Positions 4,476-38,372 of a DNA stretch of 45,201 bases are shown here, piece by piece. A model generated the notes under the pieces. That model worked only from the letters and a program-made list of their open reading frames with translations. It was not told the DNA's origin and searched no databases. This DNA is from Escherichia phage PC2. Position 1 is the first letter of the stretch; each line of letters begins with the position of its first letter. Both the position numbers and the translations under genes were made by a program. The stretch is from the sequence record NC_073088; one strand, written 5' to 3'.

Positions 4476-5182
4476 CTATTGCTAAAATGACAATCTGGTC
4501 ATTATTTGACGGCAGCGGCTTGATGATTGAGCGTGCTGCCGAGATGGGGCATAAGTGCTATTGCTTCAACTACTCCGAAGCCGATCACGGGTCGTACCTG
4601 GACTACCGGATCTATGGGCGCGGTATCCGATATCGTAATGAGTTTATCGATCTGGACTTCGTAGACCGCGCGATGAATGGCGATTTCGGTACGCCGGATA
4701 TCATCTACGCATTCCCGCCGTGTACGGATCTGGCGGTTAGCGGTGCGCCAGCGTTCCCGCGCAAACGCTCCCGCGACCCTGCCTTCCAGCTTAAGGCGGT
4801 GCGCACCGCGAAGATCGCCGCTTACCTGGGTGATTTCTTCGAAGTGCCATATATGATTGAGAATCCGCGCAGCGTGCTATCAACTCAATGGCGTAAGCCG
4901 GACCACTCGTTTGACCCGTGGGAGTATGGCGGATATCTGCCGGAGGATGACGTGCACCCGTTATTCCCGGAATACATCAACGCCCGCGATTCATATCCGA
5001 AGTTGACCTGCTTATGGACCGGCAACGGCTTCCGTATGCCAGAGAAGAAACCTGTTTTCGTTGAAAAAGGGTACTCGAAGCAGTATAGTCGCCTCGGAGG
5101 CAAATCAGCCCGCACAAAATTAATCCGGTCGCTCACCCCGCGCGGCTTCGCGATAGCGGTTAACGAGGAAAATTTAAAATGA
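4472..5182 (+). CDS. DNA (cytosine-5)-methyltransferase-like protein, short, no obvious target-recognition domain
   Basis: 236 aa; motif I-like SLFDGSGL, motif IV-like AFPPCTDLAVSG (PCT in place of PCQ), motif VI-like MIENPRSVL (ENP in place of ENV). ATGA overlap with helicase stop. Confidence 0.55.
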   Translation: MTIAKMTIWSLFDGSGLMIERAAEMGHKCYCFNYSEADHGSYLDYRIYGRGIRYRNEFIDLDFVDRAMNGDFGTPDIIYAFPPCTDLAVSGAPAFPRKRSRDPAFQLKAVRTAKIAAYLGDFFEVPYMIENPRSVLSTQWRKPDHSFDPWEYGGYLPEDDVHPLFPEYINARDSYPKLTCLWTGNGFRMPEKKPVFVEKGYSKQYSRLGGKSARTKLIRSLTPRGFAIAVNEENLK

Positions 5183-5502
5183 ATACTGCATTCGACGCCA
5201 TCGACTTTTCAGTGGCAATGACCAATCAGCTTTTTTCCTACGACAGCAAGACCGGCGTCATTCGCCTGAAGTCAACCGGCTGCAAGATTGGCAACCTCAA
5301 TACTGCCGATGGCGGTACTCGTATCGAATGCAACGGCAAGACGCTGTCTGGCGCACGCGTGGCGTGGATTATCGCGACCGGCAATACAATCCCACCAGGC
5401 TTTGCCGTTGTGTGCCGTCAGCGCACGCCAGGCCATTACGGCAACCGGATCAGCAATCTCTATTTGGTTGACGTAGCGCGCGATCCTAACTTTTATGCGT
5501 AA
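5179..5502 (+). CDS. HNH_3/NUMOD-like homing-endonuclease-related protein, probably degenerate
   Basis: 107 aa; pattern ...GY..IECNGKTLSGARVAWIIATGNTIPPGF...NRISNLYLVD resembles the HNH_3 layout but lacks the usual His residues; ATGA overlap with upstream stop. Confidence 0.35.
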   Translation: MNTAFDAIDFSVAMTNQLFSYDSKTGVIRLKSTGCKIGNLNTADGGTRIECNGKTLSGARVAWIIATGNTIPPGFAVVCRQRTPGHYGNRISNLYLVDVARDPNFYA

Positions 5503-8457: not shown

Positions 8458-10884
8458 TTATGCTTTAGACAGCGCCGCTACGGCAGCTTTCAATTCCTCC
8501 AGTTCACTACGCAACGACACCAGTTCTTCTTCCTGCTCTTTGCACACCTGCACTGCATAAGCGGCAATAGCGCCATAGTCGACCTGAAAGAAGCGCTGAC
8601 GACCCACCAGCTCCTCTCCGTCTTGCGTTGGCCCTGCGAGGTATTCGTGGTCCTCAAACGTGCTCACTGCTTCCGGCACAACGTCCATTACTTCCTGCGC
8701 AATAACCCCGGCGTAAGGCATACCGTCTTTTTTCAGGGTGTAGGTGTAACCGCCCATCTTAGCAAGGCCCGCGCGAGCGTTCTCGATCGGCTTGATGTTG
8801 TCCTTCAACTCGCGGTCCGATGACTGGTTTACCGTCGTGCAGTTTACCGTCCCGTTAACGCTCATCTGGCGCGTGCCGTTGCTGTTATACTGGGCGTAAA
8901 AAAGCCACCCCGGACCATCGTCAAGCCCAAACTCAATAACCGACGGGCGACCTGCCCCGTTACCCCACAATTTGAAGGTTGCTGGGTGTGACGAGTTGCC
9001 GTCGTTCTGCATTTTGAAATACTTGCCACTCGGACGGTTGATCTCTAAACTTGCGGCCTGAACGTATGCTTTACCCGCAAAATTCTTTGTACCAAGCACA
9101 ACGCCGTCCTTGATCAGCTCAACCTTACACGATGTAATATCGTTCAGGAATAAGGCGTTCGTCCCAGTGTCTTTCCCTAAAAACCAAAGACGTGTGCCTG
9201 CGGAGTTGTACCCTGTTACGTGCAGTGGTTGGTCGTTTGTTGACGCTGTTCCGTCGATACGAAATCCGCCATTAGCGGTTATAACTTTAATGCTGGGTAC
9301 GGTCATAGCAAATGTGCCGCTGGCTGCAAGCCCGTTATACGCGATCAGATTGTTGTCATACGCCAGTTCGCCGTTGTCACGAAGTTGAAAGTATTTATTA
9401 GATGCCGAGTTGTGAACAAATACATCTTTGGCGCCAGGTTTAATAGTTATGATCTTTCCGTCAACGGAAGCGCGCACCGCAGATCCAGTAATTACTCCAG
9501 AAAAAGTCGGCGACGACCCTGCGTTATACAACTCGTACCACTGCGACCATATTCCAGTAGCCGCGTTGTCTAGCCATCGAATCCAGCGCCGCCCGTTGCG
9601 GTATAATGTGTACGTCTGTACGCAACTCTTCGGGTCGTTAGCGCCAGTGCGCTGAACAAGTAGGCAACCTGCTTCCTGAAAGGGATAATTACGCTCCGGC
9701 GTTGCGTTGGCACTCAGGCCAGTATAATAAAATCCGGCCTTATCACCCTGAAGGTCGTTAAGGTCTTCGCTTACCAACGTTGCCCGGCGCTCGTGCATTG
9801 CCTGAAGATTGGCGCGCGCGCCCTGGTCGTTTGACGCACCTGTCCCACCGTCTCCGATCGCCACGTCCCCATTTGACCCCAGCTTCGCAAGCTCAATAGC
9901 GCTAACCCTTCCAGACGATCCGTTAATCGCGGCATTGTTTCCCGAGAAAACTTTAACGCGCGAGGTTTGCCAGTCAACGTTGATTGCAAAGAATGTATCC
10001 CCCGCGCCGCCACATACACCGGGTCCGTATCTGAAAGGGGTCATCTCACCGGCTTGGAACTGCGAAATATCATCAACGCGCCAAAAACCGCCTTTGACCG
10101 CATCGCGCAACCGCTTTAGCATATCCCTCACGCCAGTCGGAGCGTTTACGGTGACGCCCGCATACGGCACTTTCTGCGAGGCGTCCGCGCTGTTCGCAAA
10201 GCCTTCTGCCTCGTCGCGGAATCCTTTTGCCTGATCTTTAGCAGTTACGGCCTGCGACTTAGCAGTTACGGCCTGCGACTTAGCTGTCTCCGCGGCAGTC
10301 TTTGCGGACTCGGCTGCCGTCTTAGCTGTCTCGGCTTTGCCCTGTGCGGCCTCCGCCGCTGTTTTAGCTGTATTCGCGGTGTTCTTGAATCCTTCCGCCT
10401 CGTTACGGAAGCCTTGCGCCTGGTTTTTAGCCGTGATGGTCTGGTCTGCGATAGCCTGCAATTCAACCGGGTCTACATCTTTAAGCAGTTTAGACAGGTA
10501 GCCCCACGACATGCCCTGCACTACTTGACCGTTCGGCAGCGTGACCGAGATTTCCTCTTCTTCTCCGAAGATTGCGCGCCAGTTGTTCTCATCTGCGATC
10601 ATCAATCGCAGCGCTTTTTGCGCCTGGACGGTTACGCCCATCGTCGCCAGCGACATGGTATCGCGCTTAACGCCATCCCACGCAAGGCCGGTTGCCGTTG
10701 GGCCGTCGAACGGCAACACCAGCGTGAGCGCGGTTGCGCTTTCAATGGACGCGATCGCTACGGTGTAGGGGACTTGTCCTACCACCAGCGTTAAGAAGTC
10801 ACCAGCTTTAAACGCGGTAAACGTTGTGCCTACCCCTACAACCGCCTTGCTGTTATTCGTTACGGATAGAGTACCCGCTGCCAT
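8458..10884 (-). CDS. Tail fibre protein with C-terminal intramolecular-chaperone (endosialidase-chaperone-like) domain
   Basis: 808 aa; Ala/Lys/Thr heptad repeats in the shaft; C-terminus ...SSDRELKDNIKPIENA...GGYTYTLKK...GVIAQEV...; last gene of the tail operon; RBS GAGGA. Confidence 0.8.
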   Translation of the reverse strand: MAAGTLSVTNNSKAVVGVGTTFTAFKAGDFLTLVVGQVPYTVAIASIESATALTLVLPFDGPTATGLAWDGVKRDTMSLATMGVTVQAQKALRLMIADENNWRAIFGEEEEISVTLPNGQVVQGMSWGYLSKLLKDVDPVELQAIADQTITAKNQAQGFRNEAEGFKNTANTAKTAAEAAQGKAETAKTAAESAKTAAETAKSQAVTAKSQAVTAKDQAKGFRDEAEGFANSADASQKVPYAGVTVNAPTGVRDMLKRLRDAVKGGFWRVDDISQFQAGEMTPFRYGPGVCGGAGDTFFAINVDWQTSRVKVFSGNNAAINGSSGRVSAIELAKLGSNGDVAIGDGGTGASNDQGARANLQAMHERRATLVSEDLNDLQGDKAGFYYTGLSANATPERNYPFQEAGCLLVQRTGANDPKSCVQTYTLYRNGRRWIRWLDNAATGIWSQWYELYNAGSSPTFSGVITGSAVRASVDGKIITIKPGAKDVFVHNSASNKYFQLRDNGELAYDNNLIAYNGLAASGTFAMTVPSIKVITANGGFRIDGTASTNDQPLHVTGYNSAGTRLWFLGKDTGTNALFLNDITSCKVELIKDGVVLGTKNFAGKAYVQAASLEINRPSGKYFKMQNDGNSSHPATFKLWGNGAGRPSVIEFGLDDGPGWLFYAQYNSNGTRQMSVNGTVNCTTVNQSSDRELKDNIKPIENARAGLAKMGGYTYTLKKDGMPYAGVIAQEVMDVVPEAVSTFEDHEYLAGPTQDGEELVGRQRFFQVDYGAIAAYAVQVCKEQEEELVSLRSELEELKAAVAALSKA
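10240..10281. repeat. Perfect 21-bp tandem duplication inside the tail fibre gene
   Basis: AGCAGTTACGGCCTGCGACTT twice in tandem, encoding KSQAVTA twice; within a longer 21-nt periodic region (about 10225-10390). Confidence 0.8.
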
Positions 10885-17763: not shown

Positions 17764-18416
17764 CTTACGAATCCAATAGCAGTCTTAAGGGTGGCGGATA
17801 CGGTTGCCGTGAGGTGTCCGTTGTCCGTGTACGACAAGCTCGAACGCTCGACCACGAATAAACCTGTTTCGCCATCCGGCGCGGTGACGACAAACGGCTT
17901 GACGAAGTGCCCGCGAAGGAAGTTGTAAACCAGTTTAGGGTTGCACCACTTGTCAGTAGTCAGTCCTATGAATTGCACGGGGAACTGTTTAGTTTCGGCG
18001 TTCGGGCCGTCCGCGATGTTCTGCCCGTAGCCATTACCGAATTGCAATTCCTCGGACCGGAAAGCTAACTGCACGTCGCCACCGCCCTGCAATTGCATGT
18101 GCCAGTAATAGGGCCATTCGTTTGATCGCGGGTCGTGTGCTTCGATTAGCTCATATGCCGCACCGGATTTCGTTGGCCCAGCCCAGTTATCTTTCAGGGT
18201 AATGACCGTGTTAGAGTTGAATGCCGCAATTTTGCCGGTGTAGTCGTTGCCGTCGATGCGGGCGAATACGAGTACCTTCCCGATCTCGCTAAGGAACGCC
18301 GTTCCCGCGCCAGTGACGGTCTTACTTCCTTTCGTTAGTGTGATTGTACCTTGTGACATAAAAAGCCCCCACGTTGTAGTGAGGGCCATTTTATCATCGT
18401 TTGTAAAGTACACCAC
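17760..18416 (-). CDS. Minor tail protein, lambda M-like
   Basis: Position directly after the tape-measure gene; overlaps it by 23 nt. Confidence 0.7.
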   Translation of the reverse strand: MVYFTNDDKMALTTTWGLFMSQGTITLTKGSKTVTGAGTAFLSEIGKVLVFARIDGNDYTGKIAAFNSNTVITLKDNWAGPTKSGAAYELIEAHDPRSNEWPYYWHMQLQGGGDVQLAFRSEELQFGNGYGQNIADGPNAETKQFPVQFIGLTTDKWCNPKLVYNFLRGHFVKPFVVTAPDGETGLFVVERSSLSYTDNGHLTATVSATLKTAIGFVR

Positions 18417-21036
18417 CCGGTTTCGTCGCCTTCACGATCTCGGCCTTCACCGCCTCGGTGATTTGCTTGCCGAACGCCTGCGCGGTACGTGGGTCCGTCC
18501 CGCCAACACTGGTATCCGTCTTACCGGTCCCCGTGTAAACGTTAGTCGTCACGACCATACCACCGCCTGCGCCAGACGCGGCAACGCCCAGTTTCCCGTC
18601 CGGCCCGCGCTTCAGTGGCATGATGGCCTCGGGTCCAGCCTCACCCATCAACCCAGCGCCCTTAGCGAACGCCTGGACGCCATAACTGAAAAAGGTGGGC
18701 TGGCTTACCACCTGACCCGAATATGCCGCGAGATTGCCCCCTGCGAACGCTCCGCCGTCTGCATTCTTAGTGAGGCCCGAGAAGATAGCGCCGAACAATC
18801 CGTTTTTGCCGCCGTCACCACCGAAAGAGCTAACGATCGACTTGAACGCCTGCGAGGTAGCCAGCTTGATTAACTCGCTCAGGATGGATTTGACCATATC
18901 CTTCGCGTTAATCTTGCCCGTCTCGAAAAACTCGTTCATCGTGTCTTGCATAGCGCTGAATGTAAATTTCGTGAGCGACGCCATCTGCGTATATCCGTTA
19001 CCCATTTCATCCACGCTATCCTTAAGCCCGCGACTGAATCCATCCCATAGCGAGGCGTTAGCCCCGGTCTGCGCCTCCTGCACTTCCCGCAGCTTAGACA
19101 CCGCCTTGTCAATATCGGTATCGTTAGCGCCCACACGCTTCAGGCGGTCGATTAGCTGCAATTCTTCACGCAGGTTTGCCGCTTCTCGAGTGGAAAGCGC
19201 ATAGCCCGCGGCGGTGGCTTTTAGTTCGGCGTTCTGGTTCTTAACGAAGGCATCGATCTGCGCGTGCGCCTTAATCTGCTTCTCTTTCGCGTCCAGCAAT
19301 TTGGCTTCTTCGACGATCTGCTCGCGCACTTCCTTCACGCGTCCGAATTCGACCATCTGCTGCTTTTCTGCTGCCGTTAGCGCTCTTTCTTTGCTCGCAG
19401 CGATTAACTGCTCATTGTCGGCGATCAGCTTGTTTAAGGCCGCTTGAGCGCGTTGCGTGCGGGTCTGCGTAGACGCGTTGGCTTCGATCTGCTTGCCGGA
19501 TTCTCGAAGCTGGGCCAGTTCGCTCCGTGCGACTTCCAGCATTTTCATACCGGCATCCACGCGAACAGCCGCGGCCTTCTTCGGGGCGGGGTCTTTGTAA
19601 CGCTCGTTTACCTGCTTCACCGCCTCGGCAAGCTCTTTCTCATCAATAACGCCGCGCTTATTCAGCAAATTGAGGCGGGCGATCTCGTCTGCACGCTTCT
19701 TCGCGTTGGTTGCGTACTCCTTCTCGAACGCAGCGCGGTCGCGGGCGGTGCGGTTAGCCTCCTCGTTCGCCTTTGCGGATTCGTCTGCGGCGCGGGCGTT
19801 GTCTCGCTCCGCGCGGTTACGCAGGGTGAGCGACGCCACCACTTTTTCCTGGGCGACCAGTTCGCTGTAAAGCATGTTAATACGTGCTTTCTGCGCTTCA
19901 GTCATTACCCCACCGGCAGCGTTTACCGCTTTCATCTCGGCATAGTAAGCCGTGGTCATGCGCTGTAGTGATTCGCGTGCTTTCATCTCGGACTCATTGG
20001 AGGACTGCGCGCGGCCCACATCCAGGATGGCATCCCACATTGATTTGGCTGCCGATGTGACGACGTTCATCGACCGCTCAAGCGTACCCATGTTCGCCTT
20101 GATCTCATTGGTCATGCTGGTGAACGACGCAGCGGCTGTTTTGTTAGCCAACGCAACTGCGTCTGTCTCACGACCCGCATCAACGAGCGACTGTACCTGC
20201 TGGATCTGCGCTTCGTTTACGACGTGATACTTATCCGCCAGCGCACGCAGTCCGCCTACGGGGTCGGTTGACAGCTTCGCCACCGCCGCTACCACATCCT
20301 CGATCGGCTGGCTGGACACCTTCGCAAAGTCATTAACTACCTTAGCCAATGCGCCGAAGTCACCACCCGCTTTCACACCCGCCGCCGCCAGCGCCTGGAT
20401 TGTGTCACGCGTCTTGCGAAATGACCCGCCCATGCGCTCGGCGTTCTCGGACAGCACCAGGATCTGGTTAGCGGTGAGGCCGGAGATATTACCAGACAGC
20501 GCCAGCGTCTTATTAAGCGCCGCCACCTGGTTCTCTGCGCGGGTCGTAATTGCCACGCCCACGCCTAACGTCGCCGTTAATGCCGAAAGGCCGATCCCTA
20601 CTGGGCCGAGGAAGCCCGCAACATAACGCAGCGTGTTACCAAGTCCGCCAAATGCGCCGGTTAGCTGTGGTAGCTGCTGAAGCATGACGCGGTGCACCGG
20701 CATACCCATCTCAAGCGTAACCGCAATATCCTGCAACTGGAATGCGGCGTTCCTCGATGCGAATCCCAGGTTTTTGGTAGACATGCCTAATCGGCTGGCG
20801 AGTCGCTCCTGTTTCGTCATACCATCGGCGGCACGCTGCGATTCAGTCGCTAACTTTTCCATTCCGCCAGCGGCGTCGCCAGTAACCTTTTTCGACTTGC
20901 CGAGGGTGTCGTTTAATTTCTTTACTTTCTGTTCTGTGTTCTCGGATTTCTGCGCAAATGTGTCCAGCACAGTATTAGCCGTTTTAATTTGCGCGACGTC
21001 CGCCTTGAGCGTGATGCCCGCTGCCTGATCTGCCAT
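18394..21036 (-). CDS. Tail tape measure protein
   Basis: 880 aa, largely alpha-helical Ala/Lys/Glu-rich with hydrophobic segments; RBS AAGGGGGA. Confidence 0.9.
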   Translation of the reverse strand: MADQAAGITLKADVAQIKTANTVLDTFAQKSENTEQKVKKLNDTLGKSKKVTGDAAGGMEKLATESQRAADGMTKQERLASRLGMSTKNLGFASRNAAFQLQDIAVTLEMGMPVHRVMLQQLPQLTGAFGGLGNTLRYVAGFLGPVGIGLSALTATLGVGVAITTRAENQVAALNKTLALSGNISGLTANQILVLSENAERMGGSFRKTRDTIQALAAAGVKAGGDFGALAKVVNDFAKVSSQPIEDVVAAVAKLSTDPVGGLRALADKYHVVNEAQIQQVQSLVDAGRETDAVALANKTAAASFTSMTNEIKANMGTLERSMNVVTSAAKSMWDAILDVGRAQSSNESEMKARESLQRMTTAYYAEMKAVNAAGGVMTEAQKARINMLYSELVAQEKVVASLTLRNRAERDNARAADESAKANEEANRTARDRAAFEKEYATNAKKRADEIARLNLLNKRGVIDEKELAEAVKQVNERYKDPAPKKAAAVRVDAGMKMLEVARSELAQLRESGKQIEANASTQTRTQRAQAALNKLIADNEQLIAASKERALTAAEKQQMVEFGRVKEVREQIVEEAKLLDAKEKQIKAHAQIDAFVKNQNAELKATAAGYALSTREAANLREELQLIDRLKRVGANDTDIDKAVSKLREVQEAQTGANASLWDGFSRGLKDSVDEMGNGYTQMASLTKFTFSAMQDTMNEFFETGKINAKDMVKSILSELIKLATSQAFKSIVSSFGGDGGKNGLFGAIFSGLTKNADGGAFAGGNLAAYSGQVVSQPTFFSYGVQAFAKGAGLMGEAGPEAIMPLKRGPDGKLGVAASGAGGGMVVTTNVYTGTGKTDTSVGGTDPRTAQAFGKQITEAVKAEIVKATKPGGVLYKR

Positions 21037-21104
21037 TATGCAGTCCCCCTTTTTATGCAGTTGCCGTCGGTCATTGTATCAGCGAATTTAAAACAAACCT
21101 TATT

Positions 21105-21270
21105 CAGTCTCAGACGAGGGGGGCCAATGACCCCCGTCTAGTCTGAAAGACTGGGCTTTGTCCCGCCTGTCCCGATCGGCTAAAACCAGCGGCAGCACTG
21201 GCGGGGACAGGGGTGCTGTCCCGCTTTGTCCCGACCCATTCTGTCCCGCTTTTTGTCCCGCTTACTTTAT
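21105..21270. repeat. Copy A of the 166-bp GTCCCGC-repeat / hairpin element
   Basis: Aligns block-for-block with 38166-38331; contains the perfect palindrome GCGGGACAG-GGGTG-CTGTCCCGC and six GTCCCG units. Confidence 0.85.
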
Positions 21271-21300
21271 GCACGAAAACTGAATAGATATTCACATTTT

Positions 21301-21430
21301 GGGGGCGGGACAGATCGGGACAGCACCCCTGTCCGCTTTTAATTTATGCAATGCTGGTGGGTAAATATGCAGTTTTTAAAGGTGCGGGATAGAACGGGAC
21401 AAAACGGGACGTCCCGCCTGTCCCGCTCCG
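21301..21430. repeat. Second cluster of GGGACA / GTCCCGC units adjoining copy A
   Basis: GGGCGGGACAGATCGGGACAGCACCCCTGTCCGC and GCGGGATAGAACGGGACAAAACGGGACGTCCCGCCTGTCCCGC; in inverted orientation to the copy A units, across an AT-rich spacer (about 21271-21300). Confidence 0.7.
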
Positions 21431-21754
21431 TTATGCGGGGTTCTGCCGCGCCATTTCATCCAGCGCAACGCGTTCCATTAGCTTGATATCTTTAAACGCA
21501 CGTTGCGCGTTTTCGATGCCGTGCATCTTAAATAGCCATTCCAGTACGCCATAGTCGATGCCGTATGCCCCGCCAAATCCGGTACGCCATTGCGTGGAGC
21601 AATCTGTGAAGACTGCGACTACCTTCGCGTTGTCGGGCCACAGCGCAACGGGTGGACACACGTCTTCAGGTGTCGCACCCCATAAACTCGCGGCTAAATC
21701 TTCGGAGGGTGGCGGCGGGCCATAAAAGCGTCGCGCCGCCTCAATTAGTTTTTT
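21431..21754 (-). CDS. T-like extension of the tail assembly chaperone, reached only by -1 frameshift from G (G-T fusion)
   Basis: The -1 frame stays open from the heptamer (21754-21748) to the TAA at 21433-21431 with no in-frame start near its 5' end; fused product about 229 aa. Confidence 0.75.
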   Translation of the reverse strand, partial: KKLIEAARRFYGPPPPSEDLAASLWGATPEDVCPPVALWPDNAKVVAVFTDCSTQWRTGFGGAYGIDYGVLEWLFKMHGIENAQRAFKDIKLMERVALDEMARQNPA

Positions 21755-22107
21755 TCACGCAATCCCATCAGTTCGAGATAGTACGAAGTGTGGAACACGC
21801 CGAACGCGCGCGGATAGTTGACCACCAGGCGGCGGACGTTCTCCGCGTTAAATTCGTCCGGCAGATTCCAGCCTTCTGCGACGTGCATGATGGCCTCGAC
21901 CATAACGTTAAAGCCGTCCGGGTCATTGTCGTCATATTCCGACAACTTGCGCTCAGTATCCTGCATGGTCTGCGAAAATTCGTCTATAGGGCGGTGGCGC
22001 ACGGTGAACGTCATTTTGCCTGGTTCGTTTTCGCCGGGGCGCGGGATTTCAATCGGCAGCTTAAAAGTCGGCTTAGGGTCAAGTGTAAAGAGTGGTGCTT
22101 TAGCCAT
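21745..22107 (-). CDS. Tail assembly chaperone, lambda G-like
   Basis: 120 aa from ATG 22107 (RBS GGAGA 7 nt upstream; the ORF track opens at TTG 22122); ends ...MGLREKN* at the slippery heptamer. Confidence 0.8.
   Translation of the reverse strand: MAKAPLFTLDPKPTFKLPIEIPRPGENEPGKMTFTVRHRPIDEFSQTMQDTERKLSEYDDNDPDGFNVMVEAIMHVAEGWNLPDEFNAENVRRLVVNYPRAFGVFHTSYYLELMGLREKN
21748..21754 (-). other. Programmed -1 ribosomal frameshift slippery heptamer A AAA AAC
   Basis: Minus strand reads CGT GAA AAA AAC TAA in the G frame; A_AAA_AAC lies 3 nt before the G stop; -1 frame continues KKLIEAARRFYGPPPP... Confidence 0.8.
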
Positions 22108-22123
22108 TGTAGTATTCTCCAAT

Positions 22124-22146
22124 AAAAAAGGGGCCGTACTGGCCCC
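22124..22146 (-). terminator. Strong intrinsic terminator after the major tail protein gene
   Basis: Minus strand GGGGCC-AGTAC-GGCCCC followed by TTTTTT, just upstream of the G chaperone RBS. Confidence 0.8.
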
Positions 22147-22176
22147 ATATTAACACCCGCTATTTAAGCGACCAAA

Positions 22177-22902
22177 TTACGACAGCGCTTCAACCAGGTC
22201 CTTACGGTAAATAACCATATCGGATTGCATGGTCAGAGTGGACTTCACCGTCTCCACGTTGTTTACTTCAGCCGATGGAATCTTCTGGAAAGACACCTTA
22301 GCCGGGTAAATGCGGATCTCACCTTTGCCGCTTGCCGCTGCCGGGTTGGTGAACTTAATCACAGTGGTTTTCTGTGTGTCGTCCAGGTCTTCCAGAATCG
22401 GGCGGATCGGGTCTTCTTCGTCGTGGGTGAAAGTGTAGGTCTGGACCAACGGGTTTCTCGTGGTGTTCAGACTGATCGCGGTATTCACCTGCAACGGCTG
22501 GAAGGTGGTGGTCTGCTGGTCGCCACCCGACACGGCAACGTTAGTGATATACGGGAAGTCGATAAAATTCGACACTTTCACCACTTCGCCTGGGGTTCCC
22601 GCCCCAAAAGCACCGGCAGGATATTTGGTGACGTCCGAGGTGTCGAAGCGCGCCAGCGTAACGTCGTTAGTCGCCACTTTACCCACGATGAACGCGCGGT
22701 TCCGCGCACGGACCCACGGGGTTTTAGTGAACATAACCACGTCACCAACTTTCAAGCCATGAGAAGCCGCGCAGGAGATAACGCACCCTTTCGTAAGATC
22801 AGAGATCGACGCGGCGGCGTTGGTAGCTGCCGTAACAGCGATACCTTTGCCAAGTACGGACCCAATCTGGACGCTAGACCCGTTAGGAAGTTGATAACCC
22901 AT
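22177..22902 (-). CDS. Major tail protein
   Basis: 241 aa immediately upstream of G/G-T; followed by a strong intrinsic terminator, as expected for a high-copy tube protein. Confidence 0.75.
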   Translation of the reverse strand: MGYQLPNGSSVQIGSVLGKGIAVTAATNAAASISDLTKGCVISCAASHGLKVGDVVMFTKTPWVRARNRAFIVGKVATNDVTLARFDTSDVTKYPAGAFGAGTPGEVVKVSNFIDFPYITNVAVSGGDQQTTTFQPLQVNTAISLNTTRNPLVQTYTFTHDEEDPIRPILEDLDDTQKTTVIKFTNPAAASGKGEIRIYPAKVSFQKIPSAEVNNVETVKSTLTMQSDMVIYRKDLVEALS

Positions 22903-38006: not shown

Positions 38007-38165
38007 CCAATATTAATCACGCGTATGAAAAAGTTGATCGCTATCTGCTGTGACTGCAAACTGCATTTTTCACACCCCATTCTGCAACTCGCATTGGTTG
38101 CCTAGTTCAGCGACGACCGCGATTTACAATGTGCTGCCGTGTATTATGCAATCCCGGATTTTATG

Positions 38166-38331
38166 CAGTCTCAGACGAGGGGGTCAGTTGGCCCCCGTCT
38201 AGTCTGAAAGACTGGGAGTTGTCCCGCCTGTCCCGCTCCTCGCCAGGCCGCGTCATCCGGGGCGGGACAGGGGTGCTGTCCCGCTTTGTCCCGCCCCTGG
38301 TCTGTCCCGCTTTTTGTCCCGCTTACTTTAT
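38166..38331. repeat. Copy B of a 166-bp GTCCCGC-repeat / hairpin element
   Basis: Aligns with 21105-21270: identical blocks CAGTCTCAGACGAGGGGG, CCCCCGTCTAGTCTGAAAGACTGGG, TTGTCCCGCCTGTCCCG, GCGGGACAGGGGTGCTGTCCCGCTTTGTCCCG and CTGTCCCGCTTTTTGTCCCGCTTACTTTAT, separated by divergent spacers. Confidence 0.85.
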
Positions 38332-38372
38332 TCAGTTTTATTGCATAACTATTCACTATATTTACACTACAC

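Follow-up and report, generated by a model that had tools for sequence, protein, structure and literature searches.

How is the reading frame that follows the stop codon of the gene behind the major tail gene of Escherichia phage PC2 translated, given that it lies in the -1 frame and has no start codon near its 5' end? An earlier note on this DNA had answered that a tail chaperone pair is made here by a -1 frameshift at A_AAA_AAC. Our data support that reading: the position of the genes, their matches to Phage_TAC_4 and DUF1799, the same junction in 55 of 55 related loci, the coding constraint on the extension and a precedent in Serratia phage Scapp all point to it. Judged from the sequence, it is highly probable that a programmed -1 ribosomal frameshift gives rise to two tail assembly chaperones from one mRNA. 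The frameshift is an ordinary addition to the lambda G/GT kind, a well-known phage trick of which the mechanism is unchanged. Throughout, "the window" is the whole stretch of 45,201 nt that was analysed, the genome of a Dhillonvirus (HK578-like coliphage).

The minus strand reads CGT GAA AAA AAC TAA at 21759-21745 (direct read), as had been noted before, and places the slippery heptamer A_AAA_AAC (21754-21748, minus strand) in X_XXY_YYZ phase within a run of seven A (21755-21749). The 0-frame stop TAA (21747-21745) abuts the heptamer at 0 nt, and its T and first A double as the second and third bases of CTA, the invariant Leu codon with which the extension opens. Just 5' of the heptamer the -1 frame is shut by a TGA (21757-21755) made from CGT|GAA. 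The overlap of the two frames is consequently 7 nt, exactly the heptamer, which is the sole place where a -1 shift can join the frames, because the -1-frame TGA bounds it on one side and the 0-frame TAA on the other. From the TGA the -1 frame is open for 107 codons to the TAA at 21433-21431 (the earlier note gave about 106), and it opens with the sequence claimed for it, (K)LIEAARRFYGPPPPSEDLAAS... Its earliest start-like codon is a GTG at 21661, 31 codons in and unconserved, which bears out that the frame lacks a start near its 5' end. Counted over every ORF in the window that is 100 aa or longer, in-phase X_XXY_YYZ heptamers account for 40 of 21,464 codons (0.19%), and a chance origin of the junction heptamer is unlikely. 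Two other heptamers in the window have a -1 frame running well beyond the 0-frame stop: the one at 5170-5183 is an ordinary SD-ATGA start/stop overlap, and the other is located in an ORF that runs antisense within the major tail gene.

The first gene of the pair, the G analogue (tail assembly chaperone gene; 22107..21745, minus strand), extends from ATG 22107-22105 to TAA 21747-21745 and comprises 120 codons plus TAA; its translation is a 14.0 kDa product of 120 aa ending ...MGLREKN*. A GGAG Shine-Dalgarno sequence was read directly 9 nt upstream of the start codon (22120..22117, minus strand). The product matches Pfam PF08748 Phage_TAC_4 (E 1.4e-23, 83.9 bits vs a cut-off of 21.1), with residues 1-120 aligned above the gathering threshold to profile positions 1-124 of 124. 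The T analogue, the -1 extension (21748..21431, minus strand), consists of 105 codons from CTA 21748 plus TAA 21433-21431 and matches PF08809 DUF1799 over profile positions 1-80 of 80 (E 1.3e-20, 73.8 bits vs a cut-off of 26). This domain covers residues 143-219 of the conceptual GT fusion, which is 225 aa long and has a mass of 25.6 kDa; computed from the residue numbers, its coordinates are 21682..21452 on the minus strand. The profile phrog_17368 covers both halves, G as well as the extension. Upstream lies the gene of the major tail (tube) protein (22902..22177, minus strand; Phage_tail_3, E 3.9e-33; phrog_584), and downstream, after a gap of 394 nt, that of the tape measure protein (21036..18394, minus strand; TMP_2, E 1.7e-42; Tape_meas_lam_C, E 2.1e-13; phrog_24), so that the gene order is tail terminator, major tail, G, T, tape measure.

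Compared with the sequence features in the definition of a G/GT pair by Xu, Hendrix and Duda 2004, the locus has two ORFs between the major tail and tape measure genes, of which the second begins within the 3' end of the first, in a different frame, and is without a start or ribosome-binding site of its own; an in-phase slippery sequence fills the overlap, and the arrangement is conserved despite sequence divergence. In all 55 related junctions, down to about 28% protein identity, the -1 arrangement is found together with a slip motif at most one codon from the stop and an extension of about 100-106 codons; the position is the same throughout, and five different slip motifs occupy it. The heptamer ends on the last sense codon in the 44 IMG/VR loci (A_AAA_AAC in 27, G_GGA_AAC in 17), and three Logan contigs of about 60% identity keep the -1 arrangement. 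Six more GenBank Dhillonvirus loci have the same junction and were left out of the 55, because some of them duplicate IMG/VR loci. Two 58%-identical G homologues led to the three loci of intermediate divergence (L064-L066). Phage SM_W22 (H38), for which a single-piece tblastn match had hinted at an in-frame fusion, has a junction of the standard two-frame type.

Within the Dhillonviruses, A_AAA_AAC is identical in 22 of 22 aligned sequences; a 23rd record, of low quality and with many N, reads A_AAA_AAT. The third base of CGT is invariant in the tabulated Dhillonvirus junction contexts. The -1-frame TGA is present also in Aeromonas phage pAEv1818, Scapp and L064, and is absent from L066, Tlsvirus and Rtp. 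Among relatives the G stop is swapped between TAA and TGA, a change that is synonymous in the -1 frame (CTA vs CTG). An alignment of the conceptual fusions passes over the junction without a gap, and R117 and L121 are invariant in it.

The pattern of substitutions reveals that the extension is under coding constraint. Variable sites at codon positions 1/2/3 number 10/6/78 in G and 22/9/70 in the whole extension, and in the 28 extension codons upstream of any start-like codon they number 5/0/14: the start-less part of the -1 frame evolves like coding sequence, with constraint specific to codon position. The GTG at 21661 is GTT in 16 and ATT in one of 22 relatives, and where it is lost (17/22) the earliest start-like codon stands at codon 44-76 of the 107 in the -1 frame. 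Around the slip site and a predicted GC hairpin 7 nt further on, synonymous variation drops sharply: in codons 117-128 a single third position of 11 is variable, vs 148 of 225 overall, and all stretches of 18 codons with four or fewer variable third positions overlap the slip site.

On the proposed mechanism, the majority of ribosomes would end at TAA 21747-21745 and release the 14-kDa G-type chaperone, and a small fraction would slip back one base on A_AAA_AAC 21754-21748. On the two-tRNA model, both tRNAs would re-pair with AAA, tRNA-Lys from AAA and tRNA-Asn from AAC, and the slipped ribosomes would resume at CTA (Leu) in the -1 frame and continue until TAA 21433-21431. The predicted product is a 225-aa, 25.6-kDa fusion, ...REKN-LIEAARRFYGPPPP..., with the DUF1799 domain at its C-terminus, of which NLIEAAR and FYGPPPPSEDLAASLWGATPEDVCPPVALWPDNAK would be the expected -1-frame peptides. 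In one respect the earlier note has to be corrected: it gave the junction as ...REKK-LIEAARR..., and tandem slippage predicts ...REKN|LIEAARR. The A-site tRNA is that for Asn under two-tRNA slippage, and Asn is therefore more likely than Lys as the junction residue; ...REKK|LIEAARR arises only with a lone slip of tRNA-Lys or with an extra A in the mRNA.

Such an extra A could be supplied by transcriptional slippage, if RNA polymerase added one A in the A7 run (21755-21749) and the GT fusion, then with ...REKK-LIEAARR..., were mainly made from the altered transcripts. The site is indeed a homopolymer of seven A, one extra A gives exactly the -1 frame, and slippage on A/T runs is documented for bacterial RNA polymerase and productive in some genes (PMC5009743). 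However, slippage of this type is efficient at runs of about 9 A/T, compared to which 7 is short (PMC5009743), and homologues with G_GGA_AAC or A_AAG_GGT keep the arrangement although their longest runs are 3 nt, so that the mechanism shared by the family cannot be polymerase slippage. A conserved hairpin at a spacing of 7 nt likewise suits a ribosomal stimulator, and we regard a mainly transcriptional origin of the fusion in PC2 as very improbable.

Alternatively, the DUF1799 ORF might be translated alone and no fusion formed, by initiation or termination-reinitiation at ATT 21745-21743 or at GTG 21661. Existing records lean this way: that of HK578 has a 104-aa CDS from the ATT, matched by 104-aa NCBI E. 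coli entries named 'DUF1799 domain-containing protein', others call a 76-aa version from the GTG or shorter ones, and a ribosome terminating on G stands right at the ATT. Yet a Shine-Dalgarno sequence was not found within range of either codon. The codon following the invariant Leu is ATT, AAA, ACA, ATC, ATA, AGA, AGC or AGG depending on the relative, hence a start-like codon at this place is unconserved, and the GTG is GTT or ATT in the 17 of 22 close relatives mentioned above. Independent translation also leaves out of account that the slip motif is retained at the same place in 55 of 55 junctions, that the codons 5' of the GTG are constrained as coding sequence (5/0/14) and that amino-acid conservation is continuous over the junction. 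We consider separate translation just as improbable as slippage of the polymerase.

An artefact or decay, that is, a sequencing indel in the A run (homopolymer runs being classic sites of sequencing and replication indels) or a pseudogenised, unexpressed extension, has a negligible probability, against the recurrence of the A7C-TAA junction in a set of 22 Dhillonvirus genomes and metagenome contigs that were sequenced independently, the exact G protein on 415 contigs, the strong third-position bias of the -1 frame (22/9/70) and the full-length DUF1799 match. Readthrough of the G TAA was rejected: the 0 frame meets a TAG 16 codons past the TAA, and readthrough therefore cannot get to DUF1799.

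A point against ribosomal frameshifting is the weakness of the heptamer, as A_AAA_AAC shifts poorly in E. coli; A_AA.A_AA.C and G_GG.A_AA.C belong to the low-efficiency but genuinely used -1 heptamers of this host, e.g. in IS1 (PMC4066793). A candidate stimulator is a hairpin predicted at 21740..21711 (minus strand), 7 nt past the heptamer, with the 5' arm GGCGGCG (21740-21734), the 3' arm CGCCGCC (21717-21711) and a 16-nt loop that contains a short inner helix. In the 48-nt segment downstream of the heptamer it has a predicted energy of -17.1 kcal/mol and is only slightly more stable than its shuffles (z -1.9, with 8 of 200 folding equally well), and 101 nt folded around the slip site have no excess stability (z +0.34). 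All five third-codon positions in the arms are invariant among 21 distinct genomes, set against 148 of 225 that vary overall. In relatives of about 60% identity the hairpin persists, with another inner helix and a C-to-U (G-U) change, and RNAalifold on an 11-sequence alignment gives a 7-bp consensus with two compensatory pairs; Rtp, Scapp, NPat and Jahat lack the hairpin. The protein or codon usage may account for some of its conservation, because the core GGCGG/CCGCC falls on codons for conserved Ala and Pro-Pro residues, and these codons are the ones favoured in E. coli. The GC-rich hairpin probably lifts the yield on this intrinsically weak heptamer, and the abutting stop codon possibly does so as well. 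We rejected GGGA, which lies some 10 nt before the heptamer, as an SD-like stimulator, since the Gly115 codon varies between GGA, GGG and GGC in close relatives.

It is conceivable, though we would not count on it, that these elements form a family-wide 'slip-at-the-stop' cassette, in which a low-efficiency X_XXA_AAC at the final sense codon would be combined with the 0-frame stop as a pausing element ('shifty stop'), and to which the Dhillonviruses and some others would add, as part of the same tentative proposal, the hairpin at its 7-nt spacing and, directly 5' of the heptamer, a -1-frame UGA restricting the shift to one register. If this were true, the stop codon and the kinetics of termination, and not the hairpin alone, would set the G:GT ratio; the cassette would then be a distinguishable sub-class of tail-chaperone signals, with a ratio tunable by the activity of host release factors.

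A comparison with known systems places these features in context. One of the closest is a true homologue: CPT_Scapp_029/030 of Serratia phage Scapp (MH553517) is 34% identical over both halves, with the same gene order, a -1 extension of about 106 codons and a TGA-bounded overlap of 7 nt, and a joined CDS has been deposited for it (the two names being 'tape measure chaperone' and 'Tape Measure Chaperone Frameshift Product'). It differs in its slip motif, GAA AAG TAT TAA (A_AAG, one codon before the stop), which is not a full heptamer, and in that a comparable downstream hairpin is not predicted (z +2.55).

In lambda, too, an overlapping ORF pair stands between the major tail and tape measure genes, the second ORF being start-less and in the -1 frame, and an abundant short product next to a rare, C-terminally extended one would be expected in PC2 as well. 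The lambda heptamer G_GGA_AAG, cited in the earlier note, is present and in phase in J02459. It is followed by the stop after 15 nt, in contrast to 0 nt for A_AAA_AAC in PC2, and the frames overlap by 61 nt, in contrast to 7 nt; lambda T (10115-10549) overlaps H (start 10542), whereas the T analogue of PC2 is separated from the tape measure gene by 394 nt. A downstream hairpin is predicted in PC2; for the lambda frameshift site we know of no stimulator. The label "G-like" used in the earlier note is thus appropriate for position and mechanism, but not for sequence: aligning an 8-sequence fusion profile to lambda GT by hhalign gave a probability of 0.3% (E 0.2), and for the PC2 pair Pfam returned only Phage_TAC_4 and DUF1799. 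On these grounds we treat the relation to lambda as analogous by position and mechanism, with homology undemonstrated.

The model for function is lambda gpG/gpGT (Levin, Hendrix and Casjens 1993; Xu, Hendrix and Duda 2004, 2013, 2014, as cited in PMC5009743): the N-terminal part common to both products would coat the tape measure protein, and the T-type domain, being rare, would bring in the major tail protein, so that a tube of the right length is polymerised; neither G nor GT would end up in the virion. Lambda needs a G:GT ratio of about 30:1, and g-t frameshifting is widely conserved (PMC5009743). What carries the functional analogy is position and the Pfam naming, since a sequence or fold link to lambda G or T was not detected: an AlphaFold2 model of G from a 3-sequence alignment is mediocre (pLDDT 67, pTM 0.60), Foldseek of this model against the PDB gave no match below E 0.8, and a sequence-profile search of the PDB was empty.

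The heptamer itself has parallels outside this family. InsA/InsAB' of IS1 uses the same A_AAA_AAC on the same host ribosomes and tRNAs, at a deliberately low efficiency that gives a low ratio of fusion to short product, although its products are transposase components and a stimulator is not established for it (PMC4066793). E. coli dnaX (tau/gamma) combines A_AAA_AAG with a downstream stem-loop and an upstream SD-like element. It resembles PC2 in its A-rich Lys heptamer and in the stable stem-loop at short spacing (PMC5009743), in PC2 a predicted one, and differs from it in the last codon, AAG, which is far more shift-prone, in the outcome, as the dnaX frameshift truncates and that of PC2 would extend, and in the SD-like element, of which PC2 has no conserved counterpart. 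Among haloarchaeal siphoviruses, A_AAA_AAC has been proposed for g-t of HCTV-2, and G_GGA_AAC is reported to serve in HCTV-1 (PMC5009743). These are the two heptamers that dominate the chaperone family of PC2, whereas HCTV-1, -2 and -5 have archaeal hosts. We know of no sequence relationship between the PC2 pair and the HCTV proteins.

The main value of recognising the site lies in annotation; knowledge of the mechanism is unchanged. None of 60 sampled Dhillonvirus records names a chaperone pair; in the eight that were read as feature tables, a joined CDS does not occur. The sampled records label the pair 'hypothetical' or, wrongly, 'tail length tape measure protein', and they give the extension incompatible coordinates (ATT or GTG starts, shorter internal ORFs) or lack its CDS. 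The exact G protein occurs on 415 contigs, where it is called 'tape measure chaperone', 'tail assembly chaperone' and the like; a collection of about 15 billion proteins does not contain the exact 225-aa fusion, and a search for homologous proteins with the fusion returned two 58%-identical G homologues only and no fused proteins. Recognition of the site would lead to a correct joined CDS for about 150 coliphage genomes used in therapy and in studies of defence systems, and allows DUF1799 to be interpreted provisionally as the T-type domain in a G/GT pair.

Around the pair, a promoter scan of 20900-22400 found none, and Rfam at a permissive threshold gave only sub-threshold chance matches to miRNAs and sRNAs. 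A terminator scan reported a terminator-like hairpin, GGGGCCAGTACGGCCCC with a T-run, between the major tail gene and G (22146..22130, minus strand). It missed the palindrome CGGGACGTCCCG followed by TTTT after the T stop (21416..21401, minus strand), which the HK578 record annotates as a rho-independent terminator (JQ086375 11124..11141).

The window comes from a Dhillonvirus, an E. coli siphophage resembling HK578, to which the chaperone region is 96.7% identical; this region has matches in 157 phage records. Around it, the minus strand carries a tail module of the usual siphovirus type: a tail completion protein is followed by the tail terminator (Phage_tail_terminator_5), the major tail protein (22902-22177, Phage_tail_3), the ORF pair of G (the upstream ORF) and T (its -1 extension), and, last in the listed order, the tape measure protein (21036-18394, TMP_2 and Tape_meas_lam_C). 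G matches Pfam Phage_TAC_4 over its full length (E 1.4e-23) and T holds a full-length DUF1799 domain (E 1.3e-20); both memberships are firm. The first half of phrog_17368 (213 positions) matches G and its second half matches T, so that this PHROG profile spans both halves.

The G ORF runs on the minus strand from the ATG at 22107-22105 over 120 codons to the TAA at 21747-21745 and ends in ...CGT GAA AAA AAC TAA. As the earlier note had read it, positions 21754-21748 are occupied by the slippery heptamer A_AAA_AAC in the phase X_XXY_YYZ. Directly before it, the -1 frame is closed by a TGA (21757-21755, minus strand) formed by the T of CGT and the GA of GAA; 3' of this TGA, 107 codons are open up to the TAA at 21433-21431. 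Because of the -1-frame TGA and the TAA of G, the overlap of the two frames is confined to the heptamer (7 nt), and a ribosome shifting by -1 at any point outside it would run into a stop. T also lacks a start of its own near its 5' end, as previously claimed: the earliest start-like codon is the GTG at 21661, 31 codons in, for which no Shine-Dalgarno sequence was found. In-phase slippery heptamers are scarce in the whole window (40 of 21,464 codons, 0.19%), and a long -1 run past the stop accompanies only two others, one at the 5170-5183 junction and one within an antisense ORF. At 5170-5183 (plus strand), a 236-aa ORF finishes in AAATTTAAAATGA, where slippery heptamers in phase precede a -1 ORF of 107 codons; the site was rejected as a frameshift candidate, being an ordinary coupled gene junction with a GAGGA Shine-Dalgarno sequence and an ATGA start/stop overlap.

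The arrangement is widely retained among relatives. With the conceptual 225-aa fusion of G and T as tblastn query, 1,152 phage records were matched, in nearly all of the best 60 of them in two pieces, as expected because two frames are involved. Junctions were dissected in three sets: GenBank phages, IMG/VR loci and Logan contigs. In all eight GenBank phages (28-44% protein identity) the -1 extension is 100-106 codons long, and the slip motif ends with the last sense codon or one codon before: A_AAA_AAC-TAA in Aeromonas phage pAEv1818, Tlsvirus Devorator, Motto and Rtp, G_GGA_AAC-TGA in Ralstonia phage Dina, A_AAG_GGT-TAA in Jahat, GCA AAA GTT TAA in Klebsiella phage NPat and GAA AAG TAT TAA in Serratia phage Scapp. 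Likewise, 44 of 44 IMG/VR loci show the -1 arrangement with the heptamer immediately adjoining the stop; it is A_AAA_AAC in 15 Dhillonviruses and 12 members of a group of 41-45% identity, and G_GGA_AAC in 17 members of a group of 36-41% identity. Three Logan contigs, whose G is ~60% identical, carry A_AAA_AAC, then TGA or TAA. The stop of G thus varies between TAA and TGA, which the -1 frame reads as the synonymous CTA and CTG; this junctional Leu is invariant, and no gap interrupts the alignment of the conceptual fusions over the junction, where R117 and L121 do not vary. In the Zar3M record (NC_073065), which is of poor quality, the heptamer is A_AAA_AAT, a synonymous and still slippery variant; this record and that of phage L-h 1M (NC_073086) have many N bases in the chaperone region, and in the latter the feature coordinates seem shifted relative to the sequence.

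G/T is a pair of the lambda G/GT type in mechanism and position. The earlier note had proposed a lambda-like pair with another heptamer, which holds in these two respects and does not extend to sequence, since kinship to lambda G or T was not detected (hhalign probability 0.3%); no sequence-related solved structure was found for G/T, and the AlphaFold model, itself mediocre (pLDDT 67), gave no fold match. Lambda has its G_GGA_AAG inside an overlap of 61 nt, with 15 nt between the end of the heptamer and the G stop; the window's site is a more compact version. Frameshifting of the G-T type is widely conserved among long-tailed phages, and in lambda the G:GT ratio is ~30:1, which is crucial to tail assembly (PMC5009743). 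A_AA.A_AA.C and G_GG.A_AA.C rank among the low-efficiency -1 heptamers of E. coli, and IS elements such as IS1 use them where a low fusion yield is intended (PMC4066793). A weak heptamer with help from a hairpin, perhaps also from the adjoining stop codon, would suit a required fusion yield of a few percent. That the stop perhaps contributes to shifting is our own suggestion; the concept of 'shifty stops' reportedly goes back to Weiss et al. 1987.

The peptide proposed earlier for detection, ...REKKLIEAARR..., is what a conceptual translation of the -1 frame gives. If both tRNAs slipped on A_AAA_AAC, Asn would be placed at the A site, yielding ...REKN-LIEAARR..., with the tryptic peptide NLIEAAR; Lys at the junction would arise if tRNA-Lys slipped in the P site ahead of Asn-tRNA binding, or from a transcript with an inserted A. 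The junction residue itself is therefore diagnostic of the mechanism. Transcriptional slippage on the A7 run is a possible minor contributor to the fusion; efficient bacterial slippage has been described for runs of ~9 (PMC5009743), and no run of this kind exists in relatives with G_GGA_AAC or A_AAG_GGT.

Independent initiation of T at an ATT, as annotated in HK578 and in agreement with 104-aa DUF1799 entries in NCBI E. coli records, is contradicted by the relatives, among which no start-like codon is conserved there, whereas the slip motif is always retained. The window's GTG at 21661 is GTT in 16 of 22 relatives and ATT in one. The earliest start-like codon of the -1 frame is codon 69 or 76 of 107 in most relatives, and independent initiation would therefore cut most of the DUF1799 domain. 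Among 21 distinct Dhillonvirus sequences, variable sites at codon positions 1/2/3 number 10/6/78 in G, 22/9/70 in the whole -1 extension and 5/0/14 in its 28 codons from the heptamer to the window's GTG, a third-position pattern that vanishes when the same nucleotides are read in the other two frames. These counts offer comparative evidence for the putative translation of the start-less frame. A sequencing error is excluded by the same junction in 22 independent genomes and the exact G protein on 415 contigs.

The probable frameshift pair is a new, previously unannotated case of a well-known type. At least one homologue is already annotated as such: the Scapp record gives it as a CDS in two pieces, noted as 'Tape Measure Chaperone Frameshift Product'. 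No joined CDS or paired chaperone name occurs in the 60 of 157 Dhillonvirus records listed or in eight feature tables, and the exact fusion, in its Asn or Lys version, was not found in a collection of 15 billion proteins. Public records give T as 104 aa (ATT start), 76 aa (GTG), 64, 38 or 31 aa, or omit it. Annotation of records homologous to 21431-22107 is inconsistent in general: under PHROG-derived labels, 'tail length tape measure protein' is the name given to the chaperone (phrog_569) and to the T domain (phrog_680) alike. The chaperone region is also matched by Acinetobacter phage NJ01 (94-96% nucleotide identity) and by one 'Campylobacter' record, both probably E. coli phages under wrong host labels.

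Synonymous variation is strongly depressed around the slip site: 148 of 225 third positions are variable overall, compared with 1 of 11 over codons 117-128 (REKN-LIEAARRF), and all 18-codon windows with at most four variable third positions overlap the site. Within the trough lie the -1-frame TGA, heptamer and stop, followed by a 7-nt spacer and by the 5' arm of a predicted hairpin (21740-21711, minus strand; -17.1 kcal/mol, z -1.9 against shuffles) with the arms GGCGGCG (21740-21734) and CGCCGCC (21717-21711). Folding predicted hairpins at equal spacing in Tlsvirus phages (z -3.8, -4.5) and Dina, and none in Rtp, Scapp, NPat and Jahat. The 60%-identity relatives keep the outer stem, in which a C-to-U change preserves a G-U pair, and their inner helix differs in sequence yet still pairs; for 11 diverse sequences, RNAalifold gives a 7-bp consensus of five invariant pairs and two with compensatory changes. 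The evidence is mixed, and we regard the hairpin, with some reserve, as a probable stimulator; the case is not clean because its GGCGG/CCGCC core encodes conserved Ala and Pro-Pro in codons that are also preferred in E. coli. Comparison of Dhillonvirus junctions revealed no conserved upstream Shine-Dalgarno-like element.

The third base of the Arg117 codon CGT is invariant in the tabulated Dhillonvirus junctions, though CGC is equally good in E. coli; its T (CGT GA, 21755-21759, minus strand) makes the -1-frame TGA directly 5' of the heptamer. This TGA, also present in pAEv1818, Scapp and the ~60%-identity relative L064 and absent from a second such relative, L066, and from Tlsvirus and Rtp, may be selected to restrict shifting to one register. 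A second synonymous trough (21811-21855, minus strand; G codons 85-99, with 2-3 of 11 third positions variable) sits ~60-100 nt upstream of the slip site. Within it, CCGCCGCC (21835-21828, minus strand) is complementary to the hairpin 5' arm GGCGGCG, a complementarity kept in Dhillonviruses and L064 and not in L066; it may be an alternative pairing partner of that arm or a coincidence with conserved Arg-Arg codons.

A non-coding gap of 394 nt (21037-21430, minus strand), unusual for this gene pair, parts the T stop from the tape measure start. Of the window's 34 GTCCCG/CGGGAC hexamers, which make up the core of TGTCCCGC/GCGGGACA, 12 lie in this gap, in both orientations. A stretch of ~170 nt from the gap (~21102-21272) recurs in the same orientation at ~38162-38333, in a minus-strand intergenic region near 38.2 kb, with an estimated ~85% identity over the shared block and a mean column identity of 83% for the alignment as a whole; the 38.2-kb copy has seven further hexamers, and the hairpin AGACGGGGG...CCCCCTCGTCT is common to both. 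The gap and 11-14 hexamers are kept in 14 of 14 Dhillonvirus loci; a check of four loci from other groups found neither, and two of these four break off shortly beyond the T stop. The repeat resembles a regulatory module that has been duplicated, with several putative factor-binding sites. Terminator-like hairpins flank the chaperone pair on both sides, GGGGCCAGTACGGCCCC with a T-run (22130-22146, minus strand) between the major tail gene and G, and CGGGACGTCCCGTTTT (21401-21416, minus strand), an annotated terminator in HK578, directly 3' of T, which suggests that transcription is attenuated step by step along the tail operon.
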